From a virus (lineage: Duplodnaviria > Heunggongvirae > Uroviricota > Caudoviricetes): DNA of 64,000 bases. Both the position numbers and the translations under genes were made by a program. Location: positions 416,001 through 480,000 of IMG/VR virus record IMGVR_UViG_3300020045_008999; one strand, given 5' to 3'. A model generated the notes under the pieces. That model searched no databases, had not been told where the DNA came from, and saw nothing but the letters and a program-made list of their open reading frames with translations. Below, piece by piece: positions 6,341 through 32,526 of the stretch. Position 1 is the stretch's first letter, and each line of letters begins with the position of its first letter.

Positions 6341-6585
6341 CTTCTATATTTGATTTTAATCACCAAGAAGGAAAAATCAATGGTGGCGAAAGTGTCTGGT
6401 TAATTTCAGGATCGCCATCACCCAATAATATCGCGATACAGGGGTCATTGGTGCAGTTTGAAAACAATCCGGAAGAACAAGAATTGATGATATTAGATAC
6501 TACCAAAATACAAATATATAAAGTGACTAAATTAAAATAATATTCATTATTTTGTATATTACTTGACTAGTATCTGGTATTTTCA

Positions 6586-6593
6586 TATATTTG
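6586..6593 (+). promoter_or_regulatory. Bacteroidota-type -7 promoter element (representative)
   Basis: TATATTTG fits TAnnTTTG. Also at 10918(-), 13104, 26664(-), 36253, 37848, 38608, 49760(-) and 63126, each just upstream of a gene. Confidence 0.65.
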
Positions 6594-6647
6594 TATTTTA
6601 TTATAGTTCAAATGGATTGAACGTCCTTAAAACTAAAAACAAATATT

Positions 6648-6905
6648 ATGAAAAACTTCTTTTACTTTATCGCCGGTGTGTGTTTTATCACACTAATTTC
6701 GGTAACTACCGTTTCAATTATGACAGTAAAACCTATGACCCCAAAGGTCACTATTGTTGAAGATTTTAGATCAATGTATGGATTGGAGAAAGAGATGAAG
6801 CACTTTATACAATCAAAAGTTAAAGAAGGATTCGTAGTAAAATCAATTGCTATTATGGATGATGAATCTACTAGCAAGGGAATTGTTGTTCTTGAAAAAT
6901 ACTAG
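6648..6905 (+). CDS. Small protein with N-terminal membrane anchor
   Basis: Hydrophobic N-terminus FFYFIAGVCFITLISV; A-rich leader. Confidence 0.7.
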   Translation: MKNFFYFIAGVCFITLISVTTVSIMTVKPMTPKVTIVEDFRSMYGLEKEMKHFIQSKVKEGFVVKSIAIMDDESTSKGIVVLEKY

Positions 6906-6935
6906 ATACTATATTTACCATAAACGCATATTTCC

Positions 6936-6971
6936 AAAACCCCCAACATAATAATGTGTTGGGGGTTTTTT
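6936..6971. terminator. Bidirectional intrinsic terminator closing the tRNA operon
   Basis: AAAACCCCCAACATA...TGTGTTGGGGGTTTTTT. Confidence 0.85.
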
Positions 6972-6972
6972 G

Positions 6973-7045
6973 AGCCAAATATCGGACTCGAGCCGATAAT
7001 CTTGTTGTTACAAATAACATGCTTCACCAATTAAGCTAATTCGGC
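6973..7045 (-). tRNA. tRNA-Thr(UGU)
   Basis: Acceptor GCCGAAT/ATTTGGC; anticodon loop TT-TGT-AA with an A31-C39 mismatch; T-loop CTCGAGT; no encoded CCA. Confidence 0.85.
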
Positions 7046-7053
7046 AATTATTG

Positions 7054-7137
7054 AGCGCATAGACGGATTCGAACCGCCGTTGTACATATGTAACATCGTT
7101 TGCGGCGATGTGCCTTCGACCACTTAGCTATATGCGC
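7054..7137 (-). tRNA. tRNA-Cys(GCA) with long variable arm
   Basis: Acceptor GCGCATA/TATGCGC; stem CATCG/CGATG; loop CC-GCA-AA; U73; 15-nt variable region. Confidence 0.85.
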
Positions 7138-7146
7138 TTATTTTAG

Positions 7147-7219
7147 CGGGGACACTTGGCTACGATCCAAGTACCTACGGATTAACAGTCCGTTGCTCTA
7201 CCAATTGAGCTATATCCCC
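7147..7219 (-). tRNA. tRNA-Asn(GUU)
   Basis: Acceptor GGGGATA/TGTCCCC; ACGGA-CTGTTAA-TCCGT; G73; atypical T-loop ATCGTAG. Confidence 0.9.
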
Positions 7220-7225
7220 ATTTTG

Positions 7226-7298
7226 ATTCCCGACCTAGATTCGAACTAGGACTCAACACTTTAGAAAAATGTGGCTTTTCCAATTAAGCTACCGGGAA
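7226..7298 (-). tRNA. tRNA-Arg(UCU)
   Basis: Acceptor TTCCCGG/TCGGGAA; ACATT-TTTCTAA-AGTGT; T-loop TTCGAAT. Confidence 0.9.
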
Positions 7299-7308
7299 AT
7301 CTTATTTG

Positions 7309-7389
7309 TACCGAGGGTGGGGATCGAACCCACACGCCTTTCGGCACCAGATCCTAAGTCTGGCGTGGCTACCATTACACCACCTCGGC
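7309..7389 (-). tRNA. tRNA-Leu(UAG)
   Basis: CCAGA-CTTAGGA-TCTGG; long variable arm GCCGAAAGGC; A73. Confidence 0.95.
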
Positions 7390-7395
7390 ATTTTG

Positions 7396-7469
7396 TTGTT
7401 TATGATGGACTCGAACCATCGACCACCGCAGTATCAGTGCGAGACTCTAACCAACTGAGCTAATAAACA
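7396..7469 (-). tRNA. tRNA-Ile(GAU)
   Basis: Acceptor TGTTTAT/ATAAACA; TCGCA-CTGATAC-TGCGG; T-loop TTCGAGT. Confidence 0.9.
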
Positions 7470-7479
7470 ATTTATTTTG

Positions 7480-7564
7480 TACCGAGAAAGGGGATTGAAC
7501 CCTCACGAGCATTACTGCTCACTGGATTTTAAGTCCAGCGTGTCTACCATTTCACCACCTCGGC
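7480..7564 (-). tRNA. tRNA-Leu(UAA)
   Basis: CTGGA-CTTAAAA-TCCAG; variable arm GAGCAGTAATGCTC; A73. Confidence 0.95.
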
Positions 7565-7569
7565 ATTTG

Positions 7570-7644
7570 TTGTCCATGCTGGATTCAAACCAGCGACCTA
7601 ATCGGTGTAAACGAATTGCTCTAAATCAACTGAGCTAATGGACA
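7570..7644 (-). tRNA. tRNA-Val(UAC), first tRNA of the operon
   Basis: Acceptor TGTCCAT/ATGGACA; loop TT-TAC-AC; T-arm GCTGG-TTTGAAT-CCAGC. Confidence 0.88.
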
Positions 7645-7646
7645 AT

Positions 7647-7680
7647 AAAAAAACCCCTAAACTTTCGATTAGGGGATTTT
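7647..7680 (-). terminator. Intrinsic terminator directly upstream of the tRNA operon (putative attenuator)
   Basis: Minus strand AAAATCCCCTAA-TC-GAAA-GT-TTAGGGG-T7; ends 2 nt before the 5' end of tRNA-Val. Confidence 0.85.
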
Positions 7681-7714
7681 GGTTATTATTTAATTTATGA
7701 TTTCAACTCACGAA

Positions 7715-7822
7715 CTATACAACAATGCCTCCCCCATAACAAGTCAGTCTAATACATAAAGTATTATTCACGACAGTTAGTGTGTTAAGGTTATTAATTG
7801 TATTTAAGTTCATTGTTTTCAT
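7715..7822 (-). CDS. Putative attenuator leader peptide, 35 aa (MKTMNLNTINNLNTLTVVNNTLCIRLTCYGGGIVV); absent from the ORF track
   Basis: ATG at 7822 to TAG at 7715. Codons 5-28 encode only N, L, T, I, V, C and R, the amino acids of the downstream tRNAs. TAATATATA motif 7 nt upstream. Confidence 0.8.
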   Translation of the reverse strand: MKTMNLNTINNLNTLTVVNNTLCIRLTCYGGGIVV

Positions 7823-7829
7823 CTTATAG

Positions 7830-7838
7830 TATATATTA
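7830..7838 (-). promoter_or_regulatory. TAATATATA putative late promoter driving the leader and tRNA operon
   Basis: The same exact motif precedes about 15 genes in the window, including the capsid gene. Confidence 0.7.
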
Positions 7839-7863
7839 ACTTTTTATTCTTCCTTTTGGGTTA

Positions 7864-8604
7864 TTATTCAATTATATCTACTTTTGTAGAAAAAGTTTCT
7901 CTTATTTTAGTTGTTTTGTCCAAAGTTTCTAAAAATGAATTGACTTTGGTCCTAATATTAATATCTTTCTTAATTTCTACTATTTCTAAGTTAATTTCCC
8001 GTGCTTTATCATTATCATTTTTTTGCTTATACAAACCCAATAATTCTGACATTATTCTCAATAGTTCGGTGTCTTTGACAAGTCTTTCAGCAGACTTCTC
8101 TAACGATTCTTCTACTGTGATGTTATTGATATACCAATCTTTTTGGGCGACCCAATTAATTTCACTTTCATCTAGTTTTAATTCATAAAATGGGTCTATT
8201 GATAACATAACTTCCAAGTCTAATTTATTCCTGTTTAACCACGTTAAATATTTATTTAAAATGGTAGGATCAGTGACAAACATTTTCTCAGACATTTCCC
8301 ATTTATTTCTGGGTTCATAATGCAGAAGTCCCAAATAGAATCTGACAAATTCAAGTGCCATTGGTGTATTTTTATCATCCCATACACAATAGCCTTTAGT
8401 TGGTACATAAAATATATTTGACCCAGCACTACCTATGGTAGTACCAGTGTGGCAAGCTTTAACTAGGCCTTCGTCAATTAACTCATCAATGTATCGTGAA
8501 AATTCTATTCGATTTGGGGCTACCTCGGCCACGATTCCGGATGTTCCCTGACCTGTGAGTTTTTGAGTCTCTACTATTGCGGTGTAAATTTCAGATTTAT
8601 TCAT
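7864..8604 (-). CDS. Hypothetical protein (possible N-terminal wHTH, C-terminal coiled coil)
   Basis: 246-aa ORF in a minus-strand gene run. Confidence 0.7.
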   Translation of the reverse strand: MNKSEIYTAIVETQKLTGQGTSGIVAEVAPNRIEFSRYIDELIDEGLVKACHTGTTIGSAGSNIFYVPTKGYCVWDDKNTPMALEFVRFYLGLLHYEPRNKWEMSEKMFVTDPTILNKYLTWLNRNKLDLEVMLSIDPFYELKLDESEINWVAQKDWYINNITVEESLEKSAERLVKDTELLRIMSELLGLYKQKNDNDKAREINLEIVEIKKDINIRTKVNSFLETLDKTTKIRETFSTKVDIIE

Positions 8605-8636
8605 TTTCTATATTATATTTGTGTAAATAATTTAAA

Positions 8637-9155
8637 CTATTCTATAACTTTCATTAGTGAATAACACAATACATATTTGAAATCCTCTGTGAAATCTTCA
8701 TCATCCAAATATTCACACTGTGGTTGTAGGGTGCCTATATACTCCCCCCACTTGTGCCAACGCCATCCACCACCTTTGCCTCGATTAGATTTATCTTGGA
8801 ATACCGGGGTTAGTGTAATTATATATCGTTTATCTGGATCCATTATCTGTGGTGCGTATAGATTTATAATTTGGTCTATATTATCAGCAACACCATATGA
8901 GCTAATAAATATTCCATCAAAATCATCCACGAAAAAACCAGTATCTGGATCACATATGTGCGCATTCAAATCCGGTCTCTCAATTTTTTCATGAAACTCT
9001 TCTGCTGCAAAGTTATAATCAAAACTACAGCGGTATATTCCCTTATCAACCTTCCATTTGGCATCAAATTGTGGCACATATTCGAAATTTGCCTCTTTTG
9101 CGATTTTAGTCCTACGTTTACTTTCTTGTATATTTGGTGTTAAATCTACTAGCAT
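8637..9155 (-). CDS. Hypothetical phage protein (GGGWRWHKWGEYIG motif)
   Basis: 172-aa ORF with ATG start. Confidence 0.75.
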   Translation of the reverse strand: MLVDLTPNIQESKRRTKIAKEANFEYVPQFDAKWKVDKGIYRCSFDYNFAAEEFHEKIERPDLNAHICDPDTGFFVDDFDGIFISSYGVADNIDQIINLYAPQIMDPDKRYIITLTPVFQDKSNRGKGGGWRWHKWGEYIGTLQPQCEYLDDEDFTEDFKYVLCYSLMKVIE

Positions 9156-10913: not shown

Positions 10914-10965
10914 ATTGCAAATATATAATTTTTATTTAATATATACAATAAATACAATAAGAATT

Positions 10966-11631
10966 ATGAATTATCTTAAACTTTATGAAAATTTTGACGT
11001 ACACGAATGGGTAGATACTCAGGAACAATACACAGTTGATTCATTAAAATTTCAAAAAATTGTAGATTTAATCAAACAAGAATTAGGACCAGATGTGAGT
11101 GATATAGATCACATAAGTCAATCTCGCACAAGTTATGGACAATCGTGGTATATTATTTTTAAGAATGGTAAGGAAATTAGATTATCGGACCATTCAGTAA
11201 CATCAACAAACCGAACACAGTCTAAGAATTCGCTCGCAATGGTAAATATACATCTAGATTTTAGTGAGAAATATGCTAAGAGGATAGTTGATTATTACCG
11301 ACGCATAAAACAATCAATGGGTGGAAATCCGGTAAGTGTACATAAATTATTTACAGATACAGCGCAAAAGTTACAATATGTCGACGGGCATTCTGACAAA
11401 TTCATTGACAATTTAAAACAATCTAATAAAACAATAATCGAAATTGAACGGACCTACATGGATATGGCTACGTTAAAATCCAAATATCCATCAGCCGAGC
11501 ATATTTTTCAACAAGATATTGGTGGGCGCGCATCCAGCTTTACGTTTGTTAATCAGTCGAACGGTGACAATAATTATGTATTATCAATAGATTATTTTGA
11601 TTTCCTTAATAAATCGGGAATTCTATCTTAA
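10966..11631 (+). CDS. Hypothetical protein with IRLSDH motif and capsid-targeting-like N-terminus
   Basis: Start moved to ATG 10966 (MNYLKLYENF), downstream of TAATATATA at 10937. Confidence 0.7.
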   Translation: MNYLKLYENFDVHEWVDTQEQYTVDSLKFQKIVDLIKQELGPDVSDIDHISQSRTSYGQSWYIIFKNGKEIRLSDHSVTSTNRTQSKNSLAMVNIHLDFSEKYAKRIVDYYRRIKQSMGGNPVSVHKLFTDTAQKLQYVDGHSDKFIDNLKQSNKTIIEIERTYMDMATLKSKYPSAEHIFQQDIGGRASSFTFVNQSNGDNNYVLSIDYFDFLNKSGILS

Positions 11632-11656
11632 TATATACATAAAACAAATATCATAT

Positions 11657-14443: not shown

Positions 14444-14475
14444 AAATTAATATATAATAAAAATAACTAAAACAT

Positions 14476-14725: not shown

Positions 14726-15443
14726 AGTTTGTAAATTTAGTAATGGTATTAATCAGCGTTAAATTCACAGGTGGTATATTACTTAGTGTATAAAACCCTT
14801 TATCTATAAAATTAGGATCATTGTATAAGTTAATTTCCAAACCAGTAGTATCAATTTCGTAAATATTATAATTGTTTATGTGTTTGATTGAATAATTGAA
14901 TAACTTCATCTTTATAATTACTTCATCACTTGCTGATTTAGTTTTACAAACGTATATTCTATTATCATGTAATGCTAATTTCTGTTTACGCTTAGGTATC
15001 AATCCAAATTTCATTATTTTATCGTGATAAATAGAAGGGGATACATGATATAATCGCTTAGGAATAGCGGATACTTTGTCGAACTTAGCTTCGTATATTA
15101 TTTTAACTTCGGAAAGGTCCTTGCATGATGCTAATAAATAACTCTCATCATATTTGGTATTATGTTCCATACCATTAGTTTTGATAATATACATATAAGA
15201 TGGGAACCATCCCAATTGGTTAATAATTGTTGAACATAAGTATCCAAATAGTAGCTCTATGTATACCTTATTAAATTCATACAAAGTTAATGACATTGAT
15301 ACATTTTTAAAATTTTCAATATCGAACGGTATGTTTAAAATACTCAACTTTCGTTTAATAGCCAGAATGCTGAAATTAATTTCAGTGGTAGTTATTAACC
15401 CTTCATTTAAAGAATGTATAAATGTTTTAAAATCTTGTATCAT
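14724..15443 (-). CDS. Putative ADP-ribosyltransferase-fold (Tpt1/DUF952-like) protein
   Basis: RLYHVS...KIMKFGLIP...RIYVC...IYEID...NIPP pattern; N-terminus MIQDFKTFIHSLNE. Confidence 0.55.
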   Translation of the reverse strand: MIQDFKTFIHSLNEGLITTTEINFSILAIKRKLSILNIPFDIENFKNVSMSLTLYEFNKVYIELLFGYLCSTIINQLGWFPSYMYIIKTNGMEHNTKYDESYLLASCKDLSEVKIIYEAKFDKVSAIPKRLYHVSPSIYHDKIMKFGLIPKRKQKLALHDNRIYVCKTKSASDEVIIKMKLFNYSIKHINNYNIYEIDTTGLEINLYNDPNFIDKGFYTLSNIPPVNLTLINTITKFTN

Positions 15444-15467
15444 GTTATTTTATTTTATTATATTATC

Positions 15468-15500
15468 AAAAAGGGCACTCAATGTGGAGGGCCCTTTTTT
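15468..15500. terminator. Terminator downstream of the nrdA C-fragment
   Basis: AAAAAGGGC...GCCCTTTTTT. Confidence 0.7.
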
Positions 15501-15507
15501 AAATTTG

Positions 15508-16557
15508 CTATAAAACACAAGCATCACCACATCCAGATTCCAATTGTGAATCTGCCGTCGCATCGGCTTGAATAGTATCTAGTGTATTGGCATAGTACAA
15601 CTGTTTCCCACCATATTTGTAAAATTCTAGCATGTCTTTAATAACGACTTTAGCTGGCACTTTATTCCCTTCGTATTGGGCCGGGTTATAATAATGATTG
15701 ACTGATATTCCTTGATCTATCCATTTTTGCATTACACATACTACTTTGTTGATAACACTGTTATCAGTAATATCCCATGCCAATGTGTATTTATTTCCCA
15801 AAGTTTTCACACTAGGAACCACAATTTTAATACCACCATTTTTATTTAATTTAGTAGTGATTAATGACCTAGGTGGTTCAATACCATTTGTTGAGTTGGT
15901 AACAACTGAGGATGACTCCGACGGCATTAATGCACTTAAAACGGAATTTCTCATTCCATATTTGGCAATTTCACCGCGCAACCATTCCCAGTCACACGTC
16001 AATTCTCTTTTTACCAGCTCATCAACACGTTTATTATATAAATCAATTGGTAAAAGTCCCTCGGAATACTTAGTTCTGTTGAAATATTCACAAGGCCCAA
16101 GTTCTTTGGCAAGTTCCATGGATGCTTTCATCAAATAAAACTGAATATGTTCGAATAATTCATCGGTCATATCTAATATTTCTTGTGTACCGTATTTAAG
16201 ATTGTTTTTGGCCAAGAAGTACGCGTAATTGGTAACACCAACCCCGATTGACCTACGCTTAATCTGTTTATTTGATGCAGCAACCGGATAGTCTTGTAAA
16301 TCAATTATTTTGTCTAGTGCCTTAACCATATAGTACAGGGGCTTTTCCATTTTGGAAAAGGTATCTCTACCACCTAAATTGCCTAGGTTAATTCCTCCAA
16401 GCATGCACAAAGCTATCTCCGATGGTACATTCCCATACATCAATTCGAATTCTTGATCTAAATATACATACTCATCGTCGTTTTCTACTTCATTTTTATT
16501 ACAAAATTCAACCAAGTTCTCGTATTGGTTTTCTGCGTAAATTATTTCTTCTATCAT
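15508..16557 (-). CDS. nrdA: Ribonucleotide reductase alpha, C-terminal fragment of a split gene
   Basis: EIALCMLG, MPSESSS, NGIEP, KQLYY and terminal CGDAC; acidic extra N-terminal tail. Confidence 0.92.
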   Translation of the reverse strand: MIEEIIYAENQYENLVEFCNKNEVENDDEYVYLDQEFELMYGNVPSEIALCMLGGINLGNLGGRDTFSKMEKPLYYMVKALDKIIDLQDYPVAASNKQIKRRSIGVGVTNYAYFLAKNNLKYGTQEILDMTDELFEHIQFYLMKASMELAKELGPCEYFNRTKYSEGLLPIDLYNKRVDELVKRELTCDWEWLRGEIAKYGMRNSVLSALMPSESSSVVTNSTNGIEPPRSLITTKLNKNGGIKIVVPSVKTLGNKYTLAWDITDNSVINKVVCVMQKWIDQGISVNHYYNPAQYEGNKVPAKVVIKDMLEFYKYGGKQLYYANTLDTIQADATADSQLESGCGDACVL

Positions 16558-16561
16558 TTTA

Positions 16562-17986
16562 TTAATTATTTGGTTTTATTTTAATATTGTCCCCTTTTTT
16601 CAGTTCTTCGAATTTTGCGTAATCACTTTTTTTAATTTTGACCCGCCTAGTAAATGTCTGCCCATCTTTTATATCATATACCGGATTTGTGGGAAGTGTA
16701 ATTTCTTGGCATAAGTTAGACATACTCACTTTATCTTTAAATATACCTTGTGTATTCACATTGTCTATATTTTGAATATAAATACGTCCGGTATTCATAC
16801 GCTCTACTGATAATGTTAGTAACAAATCTTTACCATTTACTTTTTTACATGGAATAGTTTTATCAGATTCGTATTTCAGATAAAGTTCGTTGAATTCTGG
16901 TAATCCAAATGCTTCGTATAATCCAGGCACATCAGATGTCGAAAATAATGTGATATCTTCCCCACGAACCATTCGTTCCCAAAACATTTTAGACATTTGA
17001 ATAGAATAGTCTAATCTACGTACGCGATTATCATCGGTACCTTTATTATTTTTCAATACTAAAATTTCCTCAATTTCTTTATTCCATATTGGAAAGTGAA
17101 CCGTTGTTGATCCATCTCGCAATCCTCCTTGTGAACAACTTTTAGTAGCAGCTTCTGCTAATTTCAAAAAAGGAATTATCCCAGTATGCGTAGCTTCACC
17201 TCTTCTAATTTCCGACCCATGTGAGCGCAATTTACCCATTCCTAAGCCGATACCTGCTCGTCTTGATACAAATCTACCAACAGCATGATTTGAAGCGTAT
17301 ATGGAGTCTAAATCGTCTCCTAACTCAATTAAAGTACAACTAGCAAATTGTCTAGTCCCAGTTCTCACACCAGCCATAATTGGTGTTGGTATGTTGAGCC
17401 ATTTGGCAGTTAGCTCTTTATAAAATTCCTTAATATCTTTTAGGTTATCAAATAAAGTTGCAGCAATTATGATAAATGCGAATTGTGGGGTCTCGTAAAC
17501 ATATCCAGTATTTCGATTTCTAACTAAATAAGTAGCATGCATTTTTTGATATGATGCATAAGGTAATTTTGTATCATTTGAATGGTCAACCACCTCGTTA
17601 ATCTTGTTCCACATCTCATCATCGTATTTACCAAGTAACGTAGGATCATATAACCCAATTTCAATGTTTTTTTCAACAACTGACTTAACACTTGGCATAT
17701 CTTCATCTTTAAAAACCCCAAATATTTGCTTTCTAGTGTAGAAGCTAAATAATCTACTAGCAACATATTGATAATCCGGATTTTGTAGTGAAATCAATTC
17801 TACTGATGAATTGACAAGCACTTCGTGTATTTTTGTGGTTTTTATACCATCAAAAAATTGTATATTTGCGTTCATCAGAACATCTGATGGATTTGCATCG
17901 TATCCCTCACATGCCCAAGATACAACACTATTTAATTTATCAACTATGAGTTTTTCACTCACCCCATTTCGTTTTATTACATTCAT
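16562..17986 (-). CDS. nrdA: Ribonucleotide reductase alpha, N-terminal fragment of a split gene
   Basis: ATP-cone VIKRNG, PTPIMAG, QFASC, SQGGLR, SNLCQEI; ends in a Lys-rich tail. Confidence 0.94.
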   Translation of the reverse strand: MNVIKRNGVSEKLIVDKLNSVVSWACEGYDANPSDVLMNANIQFFDGIKTTKIHEVLVNSSVELISLQNPDYQYVASRLFSFYTRKQIFGVFKDEDMPSVKSVVEKNIEIGLYDPTLLGKYDDEMWNKINEVVDHSNDTKLPYASYQKMHATYLVRNRNTGYVYETPQFAFIIIAATLFDNLKDIKEFYKELTAKWLNIPTPIMAGVRTGTRQFASCTLIELGDDLDSIYASNHAVGRFVSRRAGIGLGMGKLRSHGSEIRRGEATHTGIIPFLKLAEAATKSCSQGGLRDGSTTVHFPIWNKEIEEILVLKNNKGTDDNRVRRLDYSIQMSKMFWERMVRGEDITLFSTSDVPGLYEAFGLPEFNELYLKYESDKTIPCKKVNGKDLLLTLSVERMNTGRIYIQNIDNVNTQGIFKDKVSMSNLCQEITLPTNPVYDIKDGQTFTRRVKIKKSDYAKFEELKKGDNIKIKPNN

Positions 17987-18031
17987 TTTTTAATCTTGTT
18001 TTTGTTTTTGTTTTTAGTTATTATATATTTA

Positions 18032-18895
18032 CTACAAAAAGTCAATATTATTCAATTTATCTAAATTTGTTTTAAATTTTGTATTATTTAATATCTTAGT
18101 GATACATTCTAAAGTAACATTATAAATATTTTCATATGAATCTACTGTATATTCAGATACATCATAATGTACATCAATTACAACCCCGGTAATGTGTTTC
18201 ACCGCACCATTTTCATCGATGGTTACAAATTCAATTTCGGTGTCTATGTATATGTTCCGGTTGACAACATCTTTAGAATATGTCTGCTTACCAATATGTT
18301 CTTCCAATTCATTTATTACTAAATTCCGCCATTTATTATCCAATAGTTTAAACATATTAAATAAATTGTCTGAAAAATATACGGAAAGTTCATTGAACAG
18401 TTCTATATTAGTAAAACTTTCATCTCTTAATGACGACTTAATCAAGTAGAAGTAATTGTTAAAATCTGCACGGGATGGTTTTCTTCGGTTGTTTGAGAAG
18501 TTTAAATCGGTTTGGGTTTCCAATACCTCATATACTTTCTCTCTAACTAATTTAGTCCTCACATAATTTTCATTATCAATTGACTCGGTCCAATATGTTG
18601 ATGCCTTGTCTACTTCGAAAGTGTCATTGAAATACATGTGCATACCATCAATATAATCTTCGTCTAATGGCTTTTCCTTTTTACCCTTGAAAATGCTATC
18701 ATGTGATAAACTATGTTTATCATTAATTGTGTGTTTTGACAATTCTAAACTATCATCAGATATAGCATCATCTAAATTAATATCACCCATGTCAATATCT
18801 AGGTCATCTACCAAATCTATATCCGAATCATCAATCATGTCATTTTCGTCGTATTCAGTATCATCGTATTCATCATTATCAAAATCTTTATCCAT
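18032..18895 (-). CDS. Hypothetical protein with very acidic N-terminus
   Basis: 287-aa ORF between rnr and nrdA. Confidence 0.8.
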   Translation of the reverse strand: MDKDFDNDEYDDTEYDENDMIDDSDIDLVDDLDIDMGDINLDDAISDDSLELSKHTINDKHSLSHDSIFKGKKEKPLDEDYIDGMHMYFNDTFEVDKASTYWTESIDNENYVRTKLVREKVYEVLETQTDLNFSNNRRKPSRADFNNYFYLIKSSLRDESFTNIELFNELSVYFSDNLFNMFKLLDNKWRNLVINELEEHIGKQTYSKDVVNRNIYIDTEIEFVTIDENGAVKHITGVVIDVHYDVSEYTVDSYENIYNVTLECITKILNNTKFKTNLDKLNNIDFL

Positions 18896-18920
18896 TTTTA
18901 ATTATATTTTTATATACTAC

Positions 18921-21026
18921 TTATACTGGAATTAAATCGATTTGTTTTTTAAGTAAATCAGTTTTTGTCACTTTTACCATGATTTTATCACCAAGTCGAT
19001 ATGATATACCGGCCGACTCATTAATTAGAGAATACGTCTTACTATCAAAATGGAAATGCCCATTAAGTGACTTTGTGCTAATTGAGCCCTCACACTTACT
19101 TTCTACTAACTCAACATATAAGTTATATTCAGATATTCCTGATATAACAGCATCGAATATTTGATCTTTTCTAGCTTCCAAATACTTTATTTGCATGTAT
19201 TTTATGGAATCTCTTTCCGCAGAGGTGGCCAATTTTTCCTGACGATTTATATGTTCGCATATTTCATCAGATTTTAACATTATTTCATTTGTCTTGGTAC
19301 GCTCTTGGTTTAAAATTACGCTCAATAATTGGTGATTTTTTATATCGGAAAACCTTCGAATCGGGCTTGTAAAATGCGAATAATGACCGAAGCTATCCCC
19401 GAGACCCCAGTGGCCTTTATCAGTGGCTGAATAAACCGCCTTTTGCATGGTCCTAATTGCTAAAGTATTTAGTAAATTTTCTTCTGGGGTATCCTTGATT
19501 TCTTCCATTAGTGCATTGATGGATTCCTTTACATTGTTTTCATCAAATTTATATCCAAACTGCTTACATAAGTTAGCTAGTTCATTCACTTTTTCTAAAG
19601 TTGGTGCCGGATGATGCCTAAATAGTCCTCGCTTAATACTTTTGTATATGTGCTGACCTACTGATTCATTGGCAAGTAACATGAATTCTTCAATTAAGTA
19701 ATTTGCTACATTTTGTTTTTTCTCATAAACACTAATTGGTAAATCATTTTCGTCTAATTTAAATTTGATCTCACTTTTATTGAAAATCAATGTATTATTT
19801 TGCATTCTACGTTCTCTCAAAATTTTAGCCTGAGCATCCACTGCTTTAATTGCTACTTCTATTTCATCATTTGTTACATCAGAAATTAATACCTCATATG
19901 CAGCCTCATATGAATAATCTCTATCAATGTGAATAATTGTTTTACCAAACCACTTATCTATGATTCCGCCATTTTTATCAAACTTGAAAAGAACACTAAA
20001 TGCTAATTTATCTTCATTTGGGTGAAGACTACATATGTTGTTAGATAATACTTCCGGAAACATTGGAACACACCGATCAACTAGATACACTGAGGTTGCT
20101 CTATTAAAAGCTTCTTCGTATAACTTCGTATCTTCATTCACATAATGTGTAATATCTGCAATATGTACCCCGATTTCAACTACTCCGTTACCCAAATCTT
20201 CAAATGATATAGCATCATCTTTGTCTCTGGCACCAATTGGGTCAATGACAAATGAAATGGTATTTCGTAGGTCCCTACGTTTGTCAATTTCTGATTGGTG
20301 GATAATTGGATCGATTAATGCTGCTTCATCTAAAACATCTTGCGGGAAAGTATATGGAAATCCATATTCCGATAGAATTGCATGTAGTTCAGTTTCATGC
20401 TTACCGGATTCGCCAATTACATTAGTCACTTTTCCATGTGGTTTTGCATATGCGTCATCCCATTTGGTAAATTCTACCACTACTACATCATTTGTCTTAG
20501 AATCCATTAAGAAATTTTTTGGTATGTAAATATCTGTATACATTTTTGCATTTTTAGATACAACATATCCGAATTTCTCTCGACGATCCATCGTTCCTAT
20601 AAATGCTACTTTATTACGTTTAGTAATATTTACAATTTCCCCAATTCTCCTCAAACCTTTCATGGTCGCCACAACAGTGACTGCATCACCATCGAACGCA
20701 CGATTGAGTCTATCCGCATAGATGAATATATCATCGGAATCACCACAATTTACATAACCATTACCATTTGAAGTAATCGATATAATACCAGTATGAACTT
20801 TATCTGGATCGATTGTATAAACTTCATTACCATCTTTATTGATGGTATGAATAACATACTCTGATGATTGAAGTCTTTTGATTTCGCGATCTACATCATT
20901 TTTATCAATTGAAAACGCATTTGATATAGCTTCTGCGGTATCTTTATTAGATACTAAATGGTTTAATATGTTATGAAACTGTTTAGTAAGCGTTTTCCCC
21001 TTATTTTTTTTCTTTTCTTTTTTCAT
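18921..21026 (-). CDS. rnr: Ribonuclease R (CSD-RNB-S1)
   Basis: IDPIGARDKDDA, GVHIAD, SVYLVDRCVPM, EEFMLLAN, HFTSPIRRF; C-terminal S1 domain. Confidence 0.93.
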   Translation of the reverse strand: MKKEKKKNKGKTLTKQFHNILNHLVSNKDTAEAISNAFSIDKNDVDREIKRLQSSEYVIHTINKDGNEVYTIDPDKVHTGIISITSNGNGYVNCGDSDDIFIYADRLNRAFDGDAVTVVATMKGLRRIGEIVNITKRNKVAFIGTMDRREKFGYVVSKNAKMYTDIYIPKNFLMDSKTNDVVVVEFTKWDDAYAKPHGKVTNVIGESGKHETELHAILSEYGFPYTFPQDVLDEAALIDPIIHQSEIDKRRDLRNTISFVIDPIGARDKDDAISFEDLGNGVVEIGVHIADITHYVNEDTKLYEEAFNRATSVYLVDRCVPMFPEVLSNNICSLHPNEDKLAFSVLFKFDKNGGIIDKWFGKTIIHIDRDYSYEAAYEVLISDVTNDEIEVAIKAVDAQAKILRERRMQNNTLIFNKSEIKFKLDENDLPISVYEKKQNVANYLIEEFMLLANESVGQHIYKSIKRGLFRHHPAPTLEKVNELANLCKQFGYKFDENNVKESINALMEEIKDTPEENLLNTLAIRTMQKAVYSATDKGHWGLGDSFGHYSHFTSPIRRFSDIKNHQLLSVILNQERTKTNEIMLKSDEICEHINRQEKLATSAERDSIKYMQIKYLEARKDQIFDAVISGISEYNLYVELVESKCEGSISTKSLNGHFHFDSKTYSLINESAGISYRLGDKIMVKVTKTDLLKKQIDLIPV

Positions 21027-21172
21027 TTTTCATTTTTGTTTATAGTCCATTATTCATAATCAACTATTTAATCTGAGTTACTGATTTCTGACATTATCAC
21101 AAATCATTTACAATTCTTATATTATAAATGGCATATAAAGTTTGTTTCTACCTATAATCTATTTATTAGTAA

Positions 21173-22519
21173 TTATGATATCCCATCCAAAAAGCGATCG
21201 TCTTCAAGTGTTAAATATGTAGTATTCAAATTTAACATAATTTGAGTTTTTGAGAAATCACCATCTCTTTGCTTCAATAGCTTCAAACGGTATTTATTTT
21301 GAAGCCGCATTTCCTCACTTCTGATGATCGCTAACACACCATCTGCACACTCCGCATACGATTTAGATTCTGGTATCTTGTCCAGGGTTATATCCGTTGA
21401 ATTCCACGCATCTTTTGCCAATTGTACCGCAGTTATAACTGCAGCATTATACTTTGCCCCCAATGCTCGCAATCCCTCAGCAACGATTTTACCTTTTGTA
21501 TATAAACTATCACCACCCTGTGATTTAGGAACCGCTATTAAACTTATGTAGTCTACAACAATTAAATCAATTTTAATATTACGCTTGTCTTGCATTTTAG
21601 CAATATAATTATCAAAATCGGCCAATGTTGCTGTCCCGGCTGCCCAAAATTTGGTAATTATTTTACCACGAGTTTTTTTGAAAATACCACCACCCATATC
21701 TGGGGTGGTTGACTTCGACATGTTATTGATTTTATTTTTGATATATTCAATATCTTTTGACTTTTCATCGAATTCATTAATTGGGATTTTTAATCGCATT
21801 GATCCCAAACGCTTCATTACTTTTTTCTCGGTCATTTCTAATGTTATGTATAGAACATTATATCCAGCATCCGCACTTCTCACTGTTAAATTCTGCATCC
21901 ATAGCGATTTACCTTGGTTGGTCTCGCCCATCAATATGGTCATTGATGATCTATCCCATCCACCACCTAACATGTGATTCAATGTAACAAACCCACTATC
22001 AATTTTATTCATCGAATTATCTTGAAAATGTGATTCGGGATCATCAAAATCTGATCCTAAGTCATCATCATCTATAAAATTAGTATTAGACATATTATTG
22101 ACTATCTCTTTTATTTTATTCGCAGAAATGATTACTTCATCGAAATCAACTAAATTGTCAATGTCTCGGGTAACATCAACAACGTCGACAACACCCGCCT
22201 TTAACCGATTTGATAATATCCAGGCATTTATTCGAGGTAATAGAAAATTAATTTCATCATATTCTGTTAAATCTACCGATAGCATATTTTTTAAAATTTC
22301 CTTACTTATCATTGCATCGTGATCGACTAATTTTACCATTTCTAATATTTGATAATTTGATGGTAGGTCATTGTTTGTCCCGCTCAAAATATAATCTCTA
22401 ATTATTTTATATACAAATTCGATTTCCCGATTCTTAAAGAAATATTGTTCAACTACTGGTAAAAAACGCTTGTTATTAATTATATATGCGAAGAAGATCT
22501 TCTCTAATGATATTGTCAT
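21173..22519 (-). CDS. Replicative SF4 helicase, T4 gp41/DnaB-like
   Basis: Walker A GETNQGKS, YITLEM, IVVDYISL, TAVQ, LKQRDG. Confidence 0.92.
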   Translation of the reverse strand: MTISLEKIFFAYIINNKRFLPVVEQYFFKNREIEFVYKIIRDYILSGTNNDLPSNYQILEMVKLVDHDAMISKEILKNMLSVDLTEYDEINFLLPRINAWILSNRLKAGVVDVVDVTRDIDNLVDFDEVIISANKIKEIVNNMSNTNFIDDDDLGSDFDDPESHFQDNSMNKIDSGFVTLNHMLGGGWDRSSMTILMGETNQGKSLWMQNLTVRSADAGYNVLYITLEMTEKKVMKRLGSMRLKIPINEFDEKSKDIEYIKNKINNMSKSTTPDMGGGIFKKTRGKIITKFWAAGTATLADFDNYIAKMQDKRNIKIDLIVVDYISLIAVPKSQGGDSLYTKGKIVAEGLRALGAKYNAAVITAVQLAKDAWNSTDITLDKIPESKSYAECADGVLAIIRSEEMRLQNKYRLKLLKQRDGDFSKTQIMLNLNTTYLTLEDDRFLDGIS

Positions 22520-22607
22520 ACTCGTGGGTTATTGTTTTTAAAGTGCTAGTTATACACATAAATAATATTTTTGTTTATTTAATTATCTAACAACTTTTTT
22601 ATGGATA

Positions 22608-24278
22608 ATGCGTATGAGTGACATGAGAAGTATTAAAAAAGATTTAAATAGATATACATCTAGAACAGAACAGGAAAATGCAATCAATTATATCAAGCGT
22701 GTACATGAGGCAAAACCTGATAATAAATTTTTCCTAATGAATTTACCAACGGGTAGTGGTAAATCACATTTAGCGATGATGATAAGTGACTATTACCTAA
22801 GCACAGTAGATAAATTAGCTAAAATTGATATAGTTACCCCTGGTAAATTACTACAAGACCAATATAGTAATGAATATGAATCAATATCGAACTTGAAAGG
22901 TGTTGGAAATTACCAATGTAAACAATATGAATGTTCTTGTGCTAGTGGTAAAGAATTTAATAAATTAAATAAAACAGAATGTGATGGGTGTCCATATGAT
23001 ATGGCAAAAATATCATATACCGTTGGGACTCTATCGATGACAAATTTTCACTTATATCTCATATATGCGATATATGGTAAGGATTTCATGAAACGAGAGT
23101 GTCGTCTATTAATAGTTGACGAGTGTCACGAATTTGATTCGGTAATGTCCGATTTTATTTCGATGAAAGTCACCGAAGCAAGTATTAAAAAATTAAAATA
23201 TACCAATGACGATCGAATCATTAAAGAATTGCGTAAGGTTTCTGACATATCAAATTATGTCAATTTTTTAAAGTTTTTACGAGCTGAGACTGATCAAACT
23301 ATATTAGATATAGAAACTGGTATGGGCATGAATCGCGATATAAAAAAAGACAAACGTAGTTTATCAATACACACGATCACCGGTGGTGAAAACGGAGATG
23401 TTAAATTAATGAAAATCATAAAAGACTTAAAACAACAGTTGATGAAAATTGATATTTTCACCACTGAGTATGAAATAAATCCGAATAATTGGGTACTAGA
23501 GTCAAATTATAATGAACATACTAAGCAAAAGGATTTATCACTAGAACCAATATGGGCTAACGATTATTTGGAAAAGTATGTTTGGTCAAAATATGATATG
23601 GTGGTTTTAATGTCTGGGACCATATTAAATAAAGATTTATTTTGCGGTCTGAATGGAATTGATCCAGATAAAGCTGTATATTACTCTATACCATCACCAT
23701 TCCCAGTAAAAAATCGGCCAGTTTATTACATCCCGATTGGAAAAATGAGTTATAATAAAAAAGAGGAAACATTTGAAAAGTATGTCCCTTTTATCAATAA
23801 CCTATTGATAAAATATGAGAATAAAAAGGGAATTATCCACACTAATTCCTTCGAGTTAGCAAAATGGATTGAACGGGATATTAAAAATCCTAGACTGGTA
23901 TACCACGATAGTTCTACAAAAGAAGAAGTACTACGGAATCATTTCAATACCGAGCAGAATACCGTGATTGTCTCGCCATCAGTAGGTACTGGGGTATCAT
24001 TTGATCATGACCGGGCCCGTTTTCAAATAATCGCTAAAATTCCCTATCCAAGTTTAGGATCTCAGAAAAATAAAATGAGACAGCGGGTGAACCCAGAGTG
24101 GTATTCATACATAACCGTAGCTACTTTAATGCAATCAATCGGTAGGATCGTGCGATCCAAAACAGATTATGGTGATACCATAATAATAGATGAATCGTTT
24201 GGTGATATCATGAAATATAGTAGCCATTTCTTACCAGACTGGATACAGCAGTCAATCATAATACCAAAGCGAAAATAA
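22608..24278 (+). CDS. DinG/XPD-family SF2 helicase
   Basis: PTGSGKS, Cys cluster, DECH, MSGT, GVSF, QSIGRIVRS. Confidence 0.9.
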   Translation: MRMSDMRSIKKDLNRYTSRTEQENAINYIKRVHEAKPDNKFFLMNLPTGSGKSHLAMMISDYYLSTVDKLAKIDIVTPGKLLQDQYSNEYESISNLKGVGNYQCKQYECSCASGKEFNKLNKTECDGCPYDMAKISYTVGTLSMTNFHLYLIYAIYGKDFMKRECRLLIVDECHEFDSVMSDFISMKVTEASIKKLKYTNDDRIIKELRKVSDISNYVNFLKFLRAETDQTILDIETGMGMNRDIKKDKRSLSIHTITGGENGDVKLMKIIKDLKQQLMKIDIFTTEYEINPNNWVLESNYNEHTKQKDLSLEPIWANDYLEKYVWSKYDMVVLMSGTILNKDLFCGLNGIDPDKAVYYSIPSPFPVKNRPVYYIPIGKMSYNKKEETFEKYVPFINNLLIKYENKKGIIHTNSFELAKWIERDIKNPRLVYHDSSTKEEVLRNHFNTEQNTVIVSPSVGTGVSFDHDRARFQIIAKIPYPSLGSQKNKMRQRVNPEWYSYITVATLMQSIGRIVRSKTDYGDTIIIDESFGDIMKYSSHFLPDWIQQSIIIPKRK

Positions 24279-24280
24279 AC

Positions 24281-24311
24281 AAAAAAACCTAAGTATTACT
24301 TAGGTTTTTTT
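24281..24311 (+). terminator. Intrinsic terminator
   Basis: AAAAAAACCTAAGTA-T-TACTTAGGTTTTTTT. Confidence 0.85.
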
Positions 24312-24322
24312 ATATATAGATT

Positions 24323-25075
24323 ATGAGAATATTAAACTATGAAAGCTATAAATTATCAAATGATTTAATGGATGAATTCATTGATCACCTATCAGAATCT
24401 AATAACAATGGGAATTTAGATAGCATTAAATCCACAGTAACTAATTTAAATCTAAATACCGGTTTAGTAGATATGATTGGTGATTACACATTGGCATTAT
24501 ACCCAATTTTCAATCAACTGTTGGTTAATTCAAAGCTAAATATTGAATTAAGCGAAACGGTCATTACACTAGTCACATTAACTACAGTTTGTGTATTTTA
24601 TTTAGAAGAGTATAAAGGGGGTAAGGTCGATATGATGTTAACATATAGTGACGCAGATGCTTTTCGAAATGACATTCGGTTTTTATTAGAAGAATTAAAA
24701 ATGTCTGGTATTGGGAATGGTATTGTTAAAAAACTATCTGAATGTGTAAATGCAGTATCTAAAATAGTCAAACTATTATTTGATGGTGGTGGATTATTCG
24801 ACCAGAAAACCAAAATACAATTTGGAAAAATATGCAATTCCATCAATTTCATGATAAATAATCATAAAATGAATATGGATACACTAATCGATAATTTCAC
24901 CATTGTATCCGATGGAATTTCCTCACCAATTGCCAAAAAAGGCATGAGCGATATTATGAAAAAATTAAATATTAAAATTGATCAAGTACAAGATGCTGAG
25001 AATACCATTATCGATATTGACAACATGGTAGATCCGAATATTGGTGATGTTATATTAGAAAATGACGATTTATAA
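24323..25075 (+). CDS. Hypothetical protein (N-terminus MRILNYESY)
   Basis: 250-aa ORF after a TTTATATATA motif. Confidence 0.75.
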   Translation: MRILNYESYKLSNDLMDEFIDHLSESNNNGNLDSIKSTVTNLNLNTGLVDMIGDYTLALYPIFNQLLVNSKLNIELSETVITLVTLTTVCVFYLEEYKGGKVDMMLTYSDADAFRNDIRFLLEELKMSGIGNGIVKKLSECVNAVSKIVKLLFDGGGLFDQKTKIQFGKICNSINFMINNHKMNMDTLIDNFTIVSDGISSPIAKKGMSDIMKKLNIKIDQVQDAENTIIDIDNMVDPNIGDVILENDDL

Positions 25076-25159
25076 AATACAATTGGACGATTGTGTGTCA
25101 AATATGTTTTACACATAATTCATTAATTATAAATTTTAGTCATTACCGTTTCAGCCATT

Positions 25160-26080
25160 TTAAAAATGTATATACTTTAAATTATTCGCATCATTTTCAT
25201 ACGCTAATAATTTCATATAATTAGATGGCGATCGTATCAACGATATATTTGAACTATTCATTTTTATGAATTCAATACACATTAACTCATCTTGTGTTTT
25301 ACACATGGTCAGCACCTCTAACCCATCGCCAAGTTCCATCGCCATCTTAACAACCGCTGGAGTTTTGTTTTTTATAAGAGGGTAACTGAAATTATATTTC
25401 ATGAGAGCATGAAGACACATTTTTTCGGTTTGGTATTTTGATAAAAGAAGTGTGAATTTTTCAATAGTTTCGTCATTACGGCGGATACCATTATTAATCT
25501 TCCAGAAACTATCAGTAAGAATATCAAGATTATCCATAATACTTATTGAATTTACCTTTTGTTCATAGATTGCGTGTACTATCAAACGATCTTCTTCTGA
25601 AATACGCATATCCATCAATAGATCAATCAATTGAAATTTATTCACATACTTGGTTATAACTTTATCATTATCCAATAAATACTTACATATCTTAGGAGTT
25701 ATTTGCTTAACGTATCGCAACGAATTAGCATCTGCACGAATGGCACATAAACAAATTGTCTCAGTTTGATTCAATACAAATTGAAACATATCCGGATTAT
25801 TCATGATTGCTGCGGTGCAAAGATTTGGGGTTTGCTTTGGTACATAAAATAAATTAAATGGATCTGCCAACACTGCATAACGCGAGATCACATGTTCTTT
25901 ATTCGCGACTAAATGATATGCCACTGGATCAATATCAATCGCTAGTTTACAAATTTCAATAGTTTGGTGTTTAACATATTGTAAATTTCTATAATCTTCT
26001 TGGACGGCAGCAATTGAGTCCCCGTCATCAAAATATTTGAAACTTGCGTTTTTTATATTCTCTAAATCGGCAATAGTCAT
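25160..26080 (-). CDS. Repeat protein, DUF4116-like (L-x-YV-x-x-QT-x-x-IC-x-x-AI)
   Basis: LQYVKHQTIEICKLAI, LFYVPKQTPNLCTAAI, FQFVLNQTETICLCAI. Confidence 0.7.
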   Translation of the reverse strand: MTIADLENIKNASFKYFDDGDSIAAVQEDYRNLQYVKHQTIEICKLAIDIDPVAYHLVANKEHVISRYAVLADPFNLFYVPKQTPNLCTAAIMNNPDMFQFVLNQTETICLCAIRADANSLRYVKQITPKICKYLLDNDKVITKYVNKFQLIDLLMDMRISEEDRLIVHAIYEQKVNSISIMDNLDILTDSFWKINNGIRRNDETIEKFTLLLSKYQTEKMCLHALMKYNFSYPLIKNKTPAVVKMAMELGDGLEVLTMCKTQDELMCIEFIKMNSSNISLIRSPSNYMKLLAYENDANNLKYIHF

Positions 26081-26102
26081 ATTATACCAAATATTAAGTT
26101 TT

Positions 26103-26189
26103 ATATCAATGAAAATGACATATTTTTATTAAAAACAGTATTACTTAATGTTTTTAATAAAATATGCCACATCATTTTTCAATTGATAT
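26103..26189. repeat. Long imperfect intergenic inverted repeat
   Basis: Core CATATTTTTATTAAAAACA/TGTTTTTAATAAAATATG plus outer ATATCAATGAAAATGA/TCATTTTTCAATTGATAT. Confidence 0.75.
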
Positions 26190-26191
26190 TT

Positions 26192-26644
26192 TTACACATC
26201 GGTTGGGATGGTCTGAGTTAAAATATCCTCACGTCTTTTTTTCTCATCACGGATAGACTTTCCAATACGTTTAAACATATCTGCACTTCTAATTTGCAAT
26301 CGCTCGAACTTTTTTTCCATCCGAATATGTTTTTCACCAGTAATTGCATCAATAACTGCTTGTATGAAATCTTCCCTGAATTTCTTATCAACGTTATCAT
26401 TTGTATTCACAAATTGAATCACGTTTGACGTTTCATTTACGCACAACGTCAAATGTATTTTTTGATTCTCTACATAATATTTATTTACTACTATATCATT
26501 ATCTATGGTAGTATCTTCAAATGATAATGCGTCGGTAATCGCATTTATAATTTCTAGTTCCTCTGATGTGAATACAATTTCTTTAATTCCCCAAACTTTA
26601 TTCCAAATTTTTCGTGGGATAGACATTTCATGACCTTTTTTCAT
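26192..26644 (-). CDS. Hypothetical protein
   Basis: 150 aa; TATATTTG upstream. Confidence 0.75.
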   Translation of the reverse strand: MKKGHEMSIPRKIWNKVWGIKEIVFTSEELEIINAITDALSFEDTTIDNDIVVNKYYVENQKIHLTLCVNETSNVIQFVNTNDNVDKKFREDFIQAVIDAITGEKHIRMEKKFERLQIRSADMFKRIGKSIRDEKKRREDILTQTIPTDV

Positions 26645-26721
26645 AATTTATGTATTTTTATTGCAAATATATACAAAATAAACATATAATTTAGTACTAG
26701 GGGCACTAATATTCGAAATTT

Positions 26722-28257: not shown

Positions 28258-28343
28258 ATGCTTGTTTATTTTTATGTACATATTATACCTAATAAATAAG
28301 CATTTGTTTAAAAACTTTTACTTCTATTTATATTATACTATAT

Positions 28344-28559
28344 ATGGAAAAATTCAACCCGGGTGATGTAGTAATTAACCATTATACTAATCGACAGTCT
28401 GCTACACGATGCATATTTCTTTCATATAACACTTATAGCGAAGCAATCGTAAATTTGGTTGATTCCAATGACCTAATCATTAGGACATATGTCAATGATA
28501 TTACATCAATATCATTGTATAGACAAATAATAATAAATGATATTTTAAATATTGATTAA
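28344..28559 (+). CDS. Small hypothetical protein with C-terminal RxxxIxxIL motif
   Basis: Ends YRQIIINDILNID. Confidence 0.7.
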   Translation: MEKFNPGDVVINHYTNRQSATRCIFLSYNTYSEAIVNLVDSNDLIIRTYVNDITSISLYRQIIINDILNID

Positions 28560-28561
28560 AC

Positions 28562-28596
28562 AAAAAAAGGGTTCCCAAATGGGAACCCTTTTTTTT
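28562..28596. terminator. Strong bidirectional terminator after the capsid gene
   Basis: AAAAAAAGGGTTCCCA-AA-TGGGAACCCTTTTTTTT. Confidence 0.9.
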
Positions 28597-28611
28597 CTAT
28601 TTACTATTTTA

Positions 28612-30285: not shown

Positions 30286-30316
30286 AATAATTTTTTATTT
30301 TTATTTTTCTTTTAAC

Positions 30317-30325
30317 TATATATTA
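30317..30325 (-). promoter_or_regulatory. TAATATATA putative late promoter of the capsid gene
   Basis: Exact motif 31 nt upstream of the ATG. Confidence 0.7.
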
Positions 30326-30369
30326 CCATTTTAAACCCTTTTTTAGCAGGGGTGGATTTTTTATAGAAA

Positions 30370-32412: not shown

Positions 32413-32526
32413 GTATGAATATTTTTTTTTCTGTTTTATATATAAAATAACAAAATCAAAAAAACACACCTTGGATTGTTTATACGTTTTGGTAGTATAT
32501 TGGTATAAATTATATGTTTGTAGAAA

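Follow-up and report, generated by a model that had tools for sequence, protein, structure and literature searches.

The DNA analysed here, hereafter the window, is a stretch of 64,000 nucleotides (nt) from the tailed phage recorded in IMG/VR as IMGVR_UViG_3300020045_008999 (positions 416,001 to 480,000; Caudoviricetes), and is part of a single-contig phage genome of 596,785 bp with a guanine-cytosine (GC) content of 32%. This genome carries 18 transfer RNAs (tRNAs) in five groups, and a transfer-messenger RNA (tmRNA). The element under study is an operon of eight tRNA genes on the minus strand of the window, together with the short region that precedes it, where a leader open reading frame (ORF), a predicted antiterminator and an intrinsic terminator are combined into what is probably a leader-peptide attenuator.

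Along the minus strand, the region begins with a bipartite promoter-like motif (7829..7856) composed of AAAGGAAG, a 9-nt spacer and TTAATATATAC, the latter read in the sequence at 7839-7829; its 3' end lies 6 nt ahead of the leader ATG. The leader ORF (7715..7822) comprises 35 codons followed by a TAG stop, and of the three frames only this one is open. Its codons 5-28 (7739..7810), all specifying Asn, Leu, Thr, Ile, Val, Cys or Arg, form what we call the sensor run, and are followed, still within the ORF, by the candidate 5' strand of the antiterminator, or region 2 (7719..7737, with the core UGGGGGA at 7736-7730 and an extension to 7719). Region 3 and the intrinsic terminator occupy 7647..7689, of which 7689-7676 would also be used by the extended antiterminator; the terminator itself consists of a 5' arm (7675-7667), a 4-nt loop (7666-7663), a 3' arm (7662-7654) and a tract of seven U residues (7653-7647). 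The tRNA array (7644-6972) starts 2 nt past this U-tract and contains, on the same strand, tRNA-Val (UAC; 7569..7644), tRNA-Leu (UAA; 7479..7564), tRNA-Ile (GAU; 7395..7469), tRNA-Leu (UAG; 7308..7389), tRNA-Arg (UCU; 7225..7298), tRNA-Asn (GUU; 7146..7219), tRNA-Cys (GCA; 7053..7137) and tRNA-Thr (UGU; 6972..7045), all supported by tRNA prediction and by Rfam, with Rfam scores of 53-64 bits. A second terminator (6936..6969), a hairpin of -21 kcal/mol followed by four U residues, ends the operon. The leader ORF, the TTAATATATAC motif, the two terminators and the eight tRNAs had been pointed out in an earlier reading made from the letters alone (the sequence-only reading), and all are present on this strand. 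The tRNA-Cys, with 85 nt and a long extra arm, is unusual for a tRNA of this specificity.

Searches of the surrounding DNA returned few matches. In an Rfam scan of 6500-8300, the tRNAs and one sub-threshold, terminator-like match were the only results, and a T-box was absent even at E <= 1; Yfr10, which reached 36 bits against a gathering score of 43, was rejected as a sub-threshold, terminator-like hit. A phage DNA similarity search in distant mode (6900-8650) matched tRNA sequences only, one in near mode (15000-35000) found a single weak stretch, and the 246-aa protein encoded upstream had no relative in the related-locus search and no PHROGs family. A search for sequencing runs that contain this DNA gave no RNA run, the matches being DNA contig sets that share at most 0.20 of the sampled words. 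Read-through of the leader TAG, as in Lak-type recoding, was considered and discarded; the genome encodes no suppressor tRNA and code 11 leaves its long ORFs uninterrupted, so TAG is read as the stop codon of the leader.

The composition of the leader corresponds to the operon that it precedes. As the sequence-only reading had claimed, translation showed codons 5-28 to be confined to seven amino acids (N, L, T, I, V, C and R), all of them used, and precisely these seven are carried by the eight tRNAs downstream. The match extends to isoacceptors, also in agreement with that reading: the Arg codon is AGA, Ile is encoded three times by ATT and never by ATA, a codon that makes up 37% of Ile codons in the long ORFs of the genome, and Leu is encoded by both TTA and CTN. 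The seven-amino-acid set, which is dictated by the tRNAs and was not picked post hoc, represents 42% of residues in those long ORFs, which gives a probability of 0.42^24, or about 1e-9, per position. In six-frame translation, the 24-codon run was the longest both in the window, where the runner-up had 13 codons, and in the whole 596,785-bp genome, where it had 19. This estimate, suggested beforehand as a check, bears directly on whether an AT-rich chance ORF might simply lie beside the terminator of the upstream gene. Such a coincidence is helped by the fact that N, I, L and T are common at 32% GC, within a set that reaches 42% of residues, but it has to face the value of about 1e-9 per position, the rank of the run in the genome, and the occurrence of the same design in four copies in this genome and in many relatives with matching changes (see below); we consider it effectively refuted.

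Three further tRNA operons in the genome (coordinates prefixed G000:C1) have the same cassette of promoter-like motif, short ORF, terminator and tRNAs, each with a GC-rich hairpin and a U-tract just ahead of the first tRNA. The leader before the Trp-Phe-His-Lys tRNAs (leader B; G000:C1 64043-64147, minus strand) contains a stretch of 12 residues with nine Phe, His, Lys or Trp; the one before the Ser(UGA)-Arg(ACG)-Ser(GCU) tRNAs (G000:C1 69791-69862, plus strand) has a run of seven Ser/Arg; and the one before the Gln(UUG) tRNA (G000:C1 509366-509446, minus strand) includes three Gln. When ranked for its own tRNA set against all 3,447 ATG ORFs of 18-50 codons in the genome, each of the four leaders fell in the tail (P = 6e-4, 9e-4, 3e-4 and 5e-2). 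The sole tRNA group in the genome that lacks a leader is the Met(CAU)-Tyr pair (G000:C1:20977-21222, minus strand). In several relatives (L001, L031, L061 and L074), tRNA-Met(CAU) is likewise located right behind a AAAGGAAG...TTAATATATA motif, with no leader between them; a leaderless tRNA-Met(CAU) would be consistent with an initiator tRNA, to which a sensor based on elongation stalling is blind.

In its major capsid protein, this phage shares 66-67% identity with LR745206 (635 kb) and LR756502 (642 kb), two uncultured huge phages, 51% with LR756501 (735 kb), and 30% with the Prevotella Lak megaphages. All tRNAs of LR745206, LR756502, LR756501 and Prevotella phage Lak-A1 were listed and their clusters retrieved, and searching IMG/VR for the motif pair as a pattern yielded 70 loci, 10 with tRNAs directly downstream and others with further cassettes. 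The cassette design was present in all four phages and in about 11 IMG/VR contigs. In LR745206 and LR756502, a leader ORF and a terminator precede almost every multi-tRNA operon, and the leader varies in composition with the tRNAs behind it. Leaders of Gln operons contain 6-7 Gln; runs of Pro-Gln-Pro-Gln and Asp-Gln-Asp occur before Asp/Pro(/Gln) tRNAs; Tyr and Glu abound in the leaders of Glu/Tyr operons; and those ahead of Ile(UAU)/Gly/Ala tRNAs are of an Ile-Ala-Gly kind. Operons of the Phe/His/Lys/Trp, Ser/Arg and Asn/Leu/Thr/Val/Ile/Cys/Arg types are also recurrent among the relatives. Changes within a type are equally informative: where Ser tRNAs lie within a Lys/Trp/Phe/His operon, Ser codons are found in its leader (L062, and L093 of LR756501); where Glu and Tyr tRNAs have been added to an Ile/Gly/Ala operon, Glu and Tyr codons accompany them (L010 compared with L024); and the LR745206 ortholog of the window operon includes a Met tRNA and has extra Met codons in its leader (L071). 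The Lak-A1 leader L088 is rich in Met, Gly, His, Pro and Cys, and precedes His, Pro, Arg, Arg, Gly, Cys and Met tRNAs.

Several other features of these tRNA loci were recorded. In Lak-A1 (MK250016, from human gut), the leader and terminator cassettes of L088 and L089 stand before dispersed tRNA blocks, those of L088 extending over 3.5 kb. At four LR756501 blocks (L090, L091, L092 and L094), no cassette was detected by a simple scan for terminators next to tRNAs that covered only about 450 nt upstream. In four IMG/VR loci (L008, L018, L025 and L030), ORFs whose Cys/His motifs are HNH-like interrupt the tRNA arrays. The tRNA blocks on both sides still match a single upstream leader, so these ORFs are probably homing endonucleases that have entered the operons. 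LR756501 also has two adjacent tRNAs with CUA anticodons, that is, amber suppressors (L095; 690585-690737), of which the genome of the window has none.

To quantify the correspondence, 29 leader/operon pairs were assembled from the genome of the window, LR745206, LR756502 and IMG/VR contigs. The summed fraction of leader residues belonging to the set of their own operon was 12.33, compared with 5.49 +/- 0.67 on random re-pairing (z = 10.2), and none of 200,000 permutations reached 12.33; a 15-pair version of the test had the same outcome. Each of the 20 amino acids was enriched, by a factor of 1.3 to 12, in leaders placed before an operon with the corresponding tRNA. Further, the match is specific to the frame of the ORF (43%, vs 19% and 14% in the other two frames) and to the codon: before tRNA-Ile(UAU), 15 of the 21 Ile codons are ATA, whereas before tRNA-Ile(GAU), 10 of 12 are ATT or ATC (Fisher P = 0.004), and Arg codons of the AGR kind are paired with Arg(UCU/CCU) and those of the CGN kind with Arg(NCG) (P = 0.015). 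The scan of other tRNA clusters for codon/anticodon co-variation, suggested in the sequence-only reading as a check, was strongly positive, in this genome as well as in its relatives.

These data can be set against the view that the ORFs encode functional micro-peptides, the terminator merely ending the small gene or the upstream 246-codon gene and the tRNAs being transcribed from elsewhere. The leaders do share similar N-termini (Met, Lys/Arg, Thr, Ile/Asn, Asn...); beyond these residues the peptides are unrelated and their composition follows the tRNA set. Moreover, in the window the terminator and the first tRNA are 2 nt apart, with no room for a promoter between them, and orthologous peptides vary freely in their 3' halves without loss of the RNA pairing, all of which makes a micro-peptide function very unlikely.

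The pairing properties of the leader RNA are those expected of a terminator/antiterminator switch. The core of region 2, UGGGGGA (7736-7730), is complementary to UCCCCUA (7676-7670), and the pairing between them that the sequence-only reading had proposed was recovered as the most stable duplex that the ORF can form with the 5' arm of the terminator (7737-7729 with 7675-7667; -11.9 kcal/mol by RNAduplex, vs -10.1 for the terminator). Only 1.4% of shuffled sequences equalled this duplex, and among 17 leaders tested against the terminator of the window, the ORF of the window ranked first. When the transcript was cut just before the terminator 3' arm, both the minimum free energy (MFE) structure and the centroid corresponded to the antiterminator, whose extension, predicted earlier to run through GG/CC and AUUGUU/AAUAAU, appeared in the MFE structure of this truncated transcript as GG/CC and AUUGUUG/CAAUAAU. 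Conversely, the full transcript folded into the terminator together with a 1:2 hairpin, in which the antiterminator strand is paired with codons ~11-16 (z = -3.1). The 1:2 hairpin over the sensor codons belongs to the full-length MFE structure of the window, and is absent or weak in several relatives.

Evidence that this arrangement is maintained was obtained from the other leaders. In 17 leaders, the ORF-internal strand is in essence a copy of the 3' arm of the respective terminator. The five D-type leaders have their antiterminator strands in different alignment registers, and a cross-pairing permutation was used in place of base-pair counts: the duplex between each ORF and its own terminator averaged -12.0 kcal/mol, vs -7.35 with the terminators of the other leaders, a difference found in 0 of 100,000 permutations. 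Among orthologs of the window leader, the terminator stems differ and the ORF-internal strand differs correspondingly. In the leaders compared, the antiterminator strand is always 3' of the sensor codons, with a median end about 12 nt ahead of the stop codon, and in the window it also ends about 12 nt before the stop. Owing to this spacing, a ribosome at the stop codon would sit on the strand, and one stalled earlier would leave it free. In the folding models, then, the antiterminator excludes the terminator, and one of its strands lies where a ribosome would mask it. The details of the switch vary among cassettes.

The hairpin might instead act in RNA processing, in transcript stability or in tRNA maturation, for instance as a 5' protective structure or an RNase entry site, accessible or not according to where the ribosome stands, the leader being translated all the same. 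Its position 2-30 nt ahead of the first tRNA would place it in the RNase P substrate of read-through transcripts. Every cassette, however, has the full signature of an intrinsic terminator, namely a GC-rich stem directly followed by 6-8 U, and the ORF-internal strand mimics the 3' arm, as one would expect for antitermination; we regard a processing role as improbable.

Comparison with the LR756502 ortholog (L072:2532-2636) provides information on translation of the leader. Over the first 25 codons, the two leaders differ by eight synonymous changes, one non-synonymous change and an in-frame indel of two codons; past codon 25, in the part involved in RNA pairing, the peptides are unrelated. The synonymous bias and the in-frame indel indirectly support translation of the leader. 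The same data bear on the alternative of a genuine switch that does not depend on translation, in which the RNA or a bound protein senses tRNA in the manner of a T-box, or responds to some other signal, and the ORF is incidental. Terminator and antiterminator alternatives by themselves need no ribosome. Nevertheless, the leader matches neither the T-box nor any other Rfam family, the correspondence with the tRNA set is confined to the ORF frame, orthologs show synonymous changes and an indel that keeps the frame, and a T-box reads one specifier codon rather than runs of codons for up to seven amino acids. We assign little probability to this alternative.

Regarding the start of transcription, all four leader cassettes of the genome are preceded by the motif pair AAAGGAAG then TTAATATATAC, the motif is conserved in the alignment of leader upstream regions, and the exact AAAGGAAG + TTAATATATAC pair occurs in the whole genome only at three tRNA leaders (B, C and D). 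The shorter TTAATATATA is more widespread: 13 copies are present in the window, against 2.5 expected, with sites at 7830-7839, 10936-10945, 11628-11637, 14447-14456, 32885-32898, 35326-35335, 38587-38596, 41722-41731, 47202-47211, 47794-47803, 49792-49801 and 63085-63094. At up to one mismatch (<= 1), the genome contains about 150 copies, nearly all located 3-30 nt before an ATG and one before the tmRNA. Because of this placement before ATGs, the tmRNA and tRNA-Met, TTAATATATA looks like a phage promoter and is probably phage-specific. The leaders, and many other transcripts of this phage, may be leaderless or nearly leaderless mRNAs, given these distances. In many relatives, a Bacteroidota-type TTTG ... 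TAnnTTTG element is found further upstream of the leader, a sequence feature that fits a Bacteroidota host and transcription by the host RNA polymerase; intrinsic terminators act on host RNA polymerase.

Two other loci with this motif deserve mention. The tmRNA (G000:C1:411350-411712) lies 4.3 kb before the start of the window, encodes a 14-residue tag ending in AFA, and is preceded by the TTAATATATA motif and a TAnnTTTG element; a phage tmRNA here coexists with putative stall-sensing leaders. In addition, a multi-copy gene family (G000:C1 ~157700-164030, minus strand, and elsewhere) shows near-identical N-termini, with starts 3 nt after a TTAATATATA-type motif.

Taken together, the co-variation of leaders with tRNA sets, the folding results, the joint variation of strand and terminator, and the synonymous divergence support the proposal, already advanced in the sequence-only reading, that the locus is a ribosome-mediated (leader-peptide) transcription attenuator of an eight-tRNA operon in a huge Bacteroidota phage, a conclusion to which we assign a probability of roughly 0.85. 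Translation of the leader, its coupling with transcription and the direction of regulation are features that we infer from sequence. Under this model, transcription would begin at or just ahead of the leader ATG, and a ribosome would translate the 35-codon leader while RNA polymerase heads for the terminator. With all seven kinds of aminoacyl-tRNA plentiful, the ribosome would clear codons 5-28 and reach the 7737-7719 strand and the stop codon; with the strand occupied, the terminator hairpin (7675-7654) would form, and transcription would end 2 nt short of tRNA-Val. Scarcity of even a single sensed tRNA would make the ribosome stall within the sensor run, leaving the antiterminator strand free to pair with the emerging terminator 5' arm, and the polymerase would enter the tRNA genes. 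The products would be the very tRNAs that are limiting, so that the circuit would behave as a seven-input OR gate exerting negative feedback on tRNA supply, negative because its products relieve the shortage. A separate, matched leader on each operon would allow each tRNA set to be regulated individually. The usual trigger may be codon demand from the phage itself, a loss of host tRNAs in the course of infection, or their cleavage by anticodon nucleases of the host.

Several observations weigh against this model, or limit it. For the Gln leader of the same genome, L015b and L010, the predicted antiterminator is no better than chance. In leader B, L012 and L043a, the stop codon follows the antiterminator strand at a distance of 29-37 nt, too far for a terminating ribosome to mask that strand. 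The leaders belong to about six descent classes, and the permutation P values obtained from the 29 pairs, which are not independent, overstate independence; the independent events are the class-level match and the within-class changes. The promoter role of TTAATATATA is one that we infer from its distribution. Bacteroidota do not use Shine-Dalgarno initiation, and for this reason the start codon cannot be validated from sequence. Finally, amino-acid starvation would also switch the operon on, without benefit to the phage.

Phages have been proposed to carry tRNA genes in order to compensate for codon usage, to replace degraded host tRNAs or to escape anticodon nucleases. If the model is correct, tRNA supply would be actively measured and corrected during infection, attenuation could control tRNA genes with the sensed molecule as the product, and one small module would integrate up to seven inputs. 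The leader would then show which tRNAs the phage expects to become limiting, and the cassettes would serve as small, transferable sensors that report how far chosen tRNAs are charged. With gut megaphages (Lak) and huge phages from the environment both carrying the design, it is not peculiar to a single genome. A tentative and rather less likely extension is that the cassettes detect damage, either from host defences directed at tRNAs (anticodon nucleases, for example) or from a loss of tRNAs that the infection brings about. If so, cleavage of any sensed host tRNA would stall the leader ribosome and switch on the operon carrying its replacement, and the phage would possess a set of codon-addressed counter-defence switches, each armed on its own; the involvement of anticodon nucleases is speculative.

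To our knowledge, all leader-peptide attenuators described so far regulate genes for amino-acid biosynthesis or for aminoacyl-tRNA synthetases. Neither full-text literature searches nor a genome-wide attenuator survey yielded a description of attenuators before tRNA genes, in keeping with the impression of the sequence-only reading that none had been described for phage tRNA clusters. Among regulators that respond to tRNA, T-box riboswitches (RF00230) resemble the phage cassettes in that translation-related genes are tuned to a specific tRNA through a choice between terminator and antiterminator. Unlike the phage leader, a T-box needs no ribosome, as its specifier codon and T-box bulge bind uncharged tRNA directly, and neither a Stem I/specifier loop nor the conserved T-box antiterminator was found in the Rfam scan of 6500-8300. 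The Bacteroid-trp leader motif of Rfam, a predicted leader-peptide attenuator of trp biosynthesis genes in Bacteroidota, belongs to the presumed host phylum; it controls trp genes, responds to a single amino acid and had no match in the same scan. By analogy, this motif suggests that attenuation can work in that phylum.

The enterobacterial attenuators include the multivalent ilvGMEDA (Leu/Val/Ile) and thr (Thr/Ile) systems, as well as trp, his, leu and pheA. As in these systems, the phage locus comprises a promoter (here, a promoter-like motif), a short ORF rich in regulatory codons, an antiterminator strand by the end of the ORF, an intrinsic terminator and the regulated genes; its short ORF lies between motif and tRNAs, the diagnostic codons are enriched, and the terminator precedes the first tRNA. 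With ilv and thr, it would share the sensing of several amino acids by one leader; for the window leader, a possible 1:2 hairpin over the regulatory codons is predicted. Unlike the enterobacterial systems, the phage cassettes target tRNAs rather than biosynthetic enzymes, so that the output is the sensed molecule; as many as seven amino acids would be sensed by one phage leader; regulatory codons make up the greater part of the ORF rather than one short block; and the cassettes are viral, with one tailored leader per tRNA operon and without sequence relation. The pheST attenuator of E. coli, with its pheM leader, offers a parallel of another kind, as a component of the translation apparatus is controlled there by the decoding of cognate codons; that system, unlike the phage cassette, involves a synthetase gene and one amino acid, and is cellular. 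The phage locus departs from described attenuators in its target, the tRNA genes, and not in its mechanism. As a leader-peptide attenuator it is closest to ilv and thr in mechanism class and to pheST in target class, and it differs from all these known attenuators in its tRNA targets, in the number of its inputs and in its viral origin.

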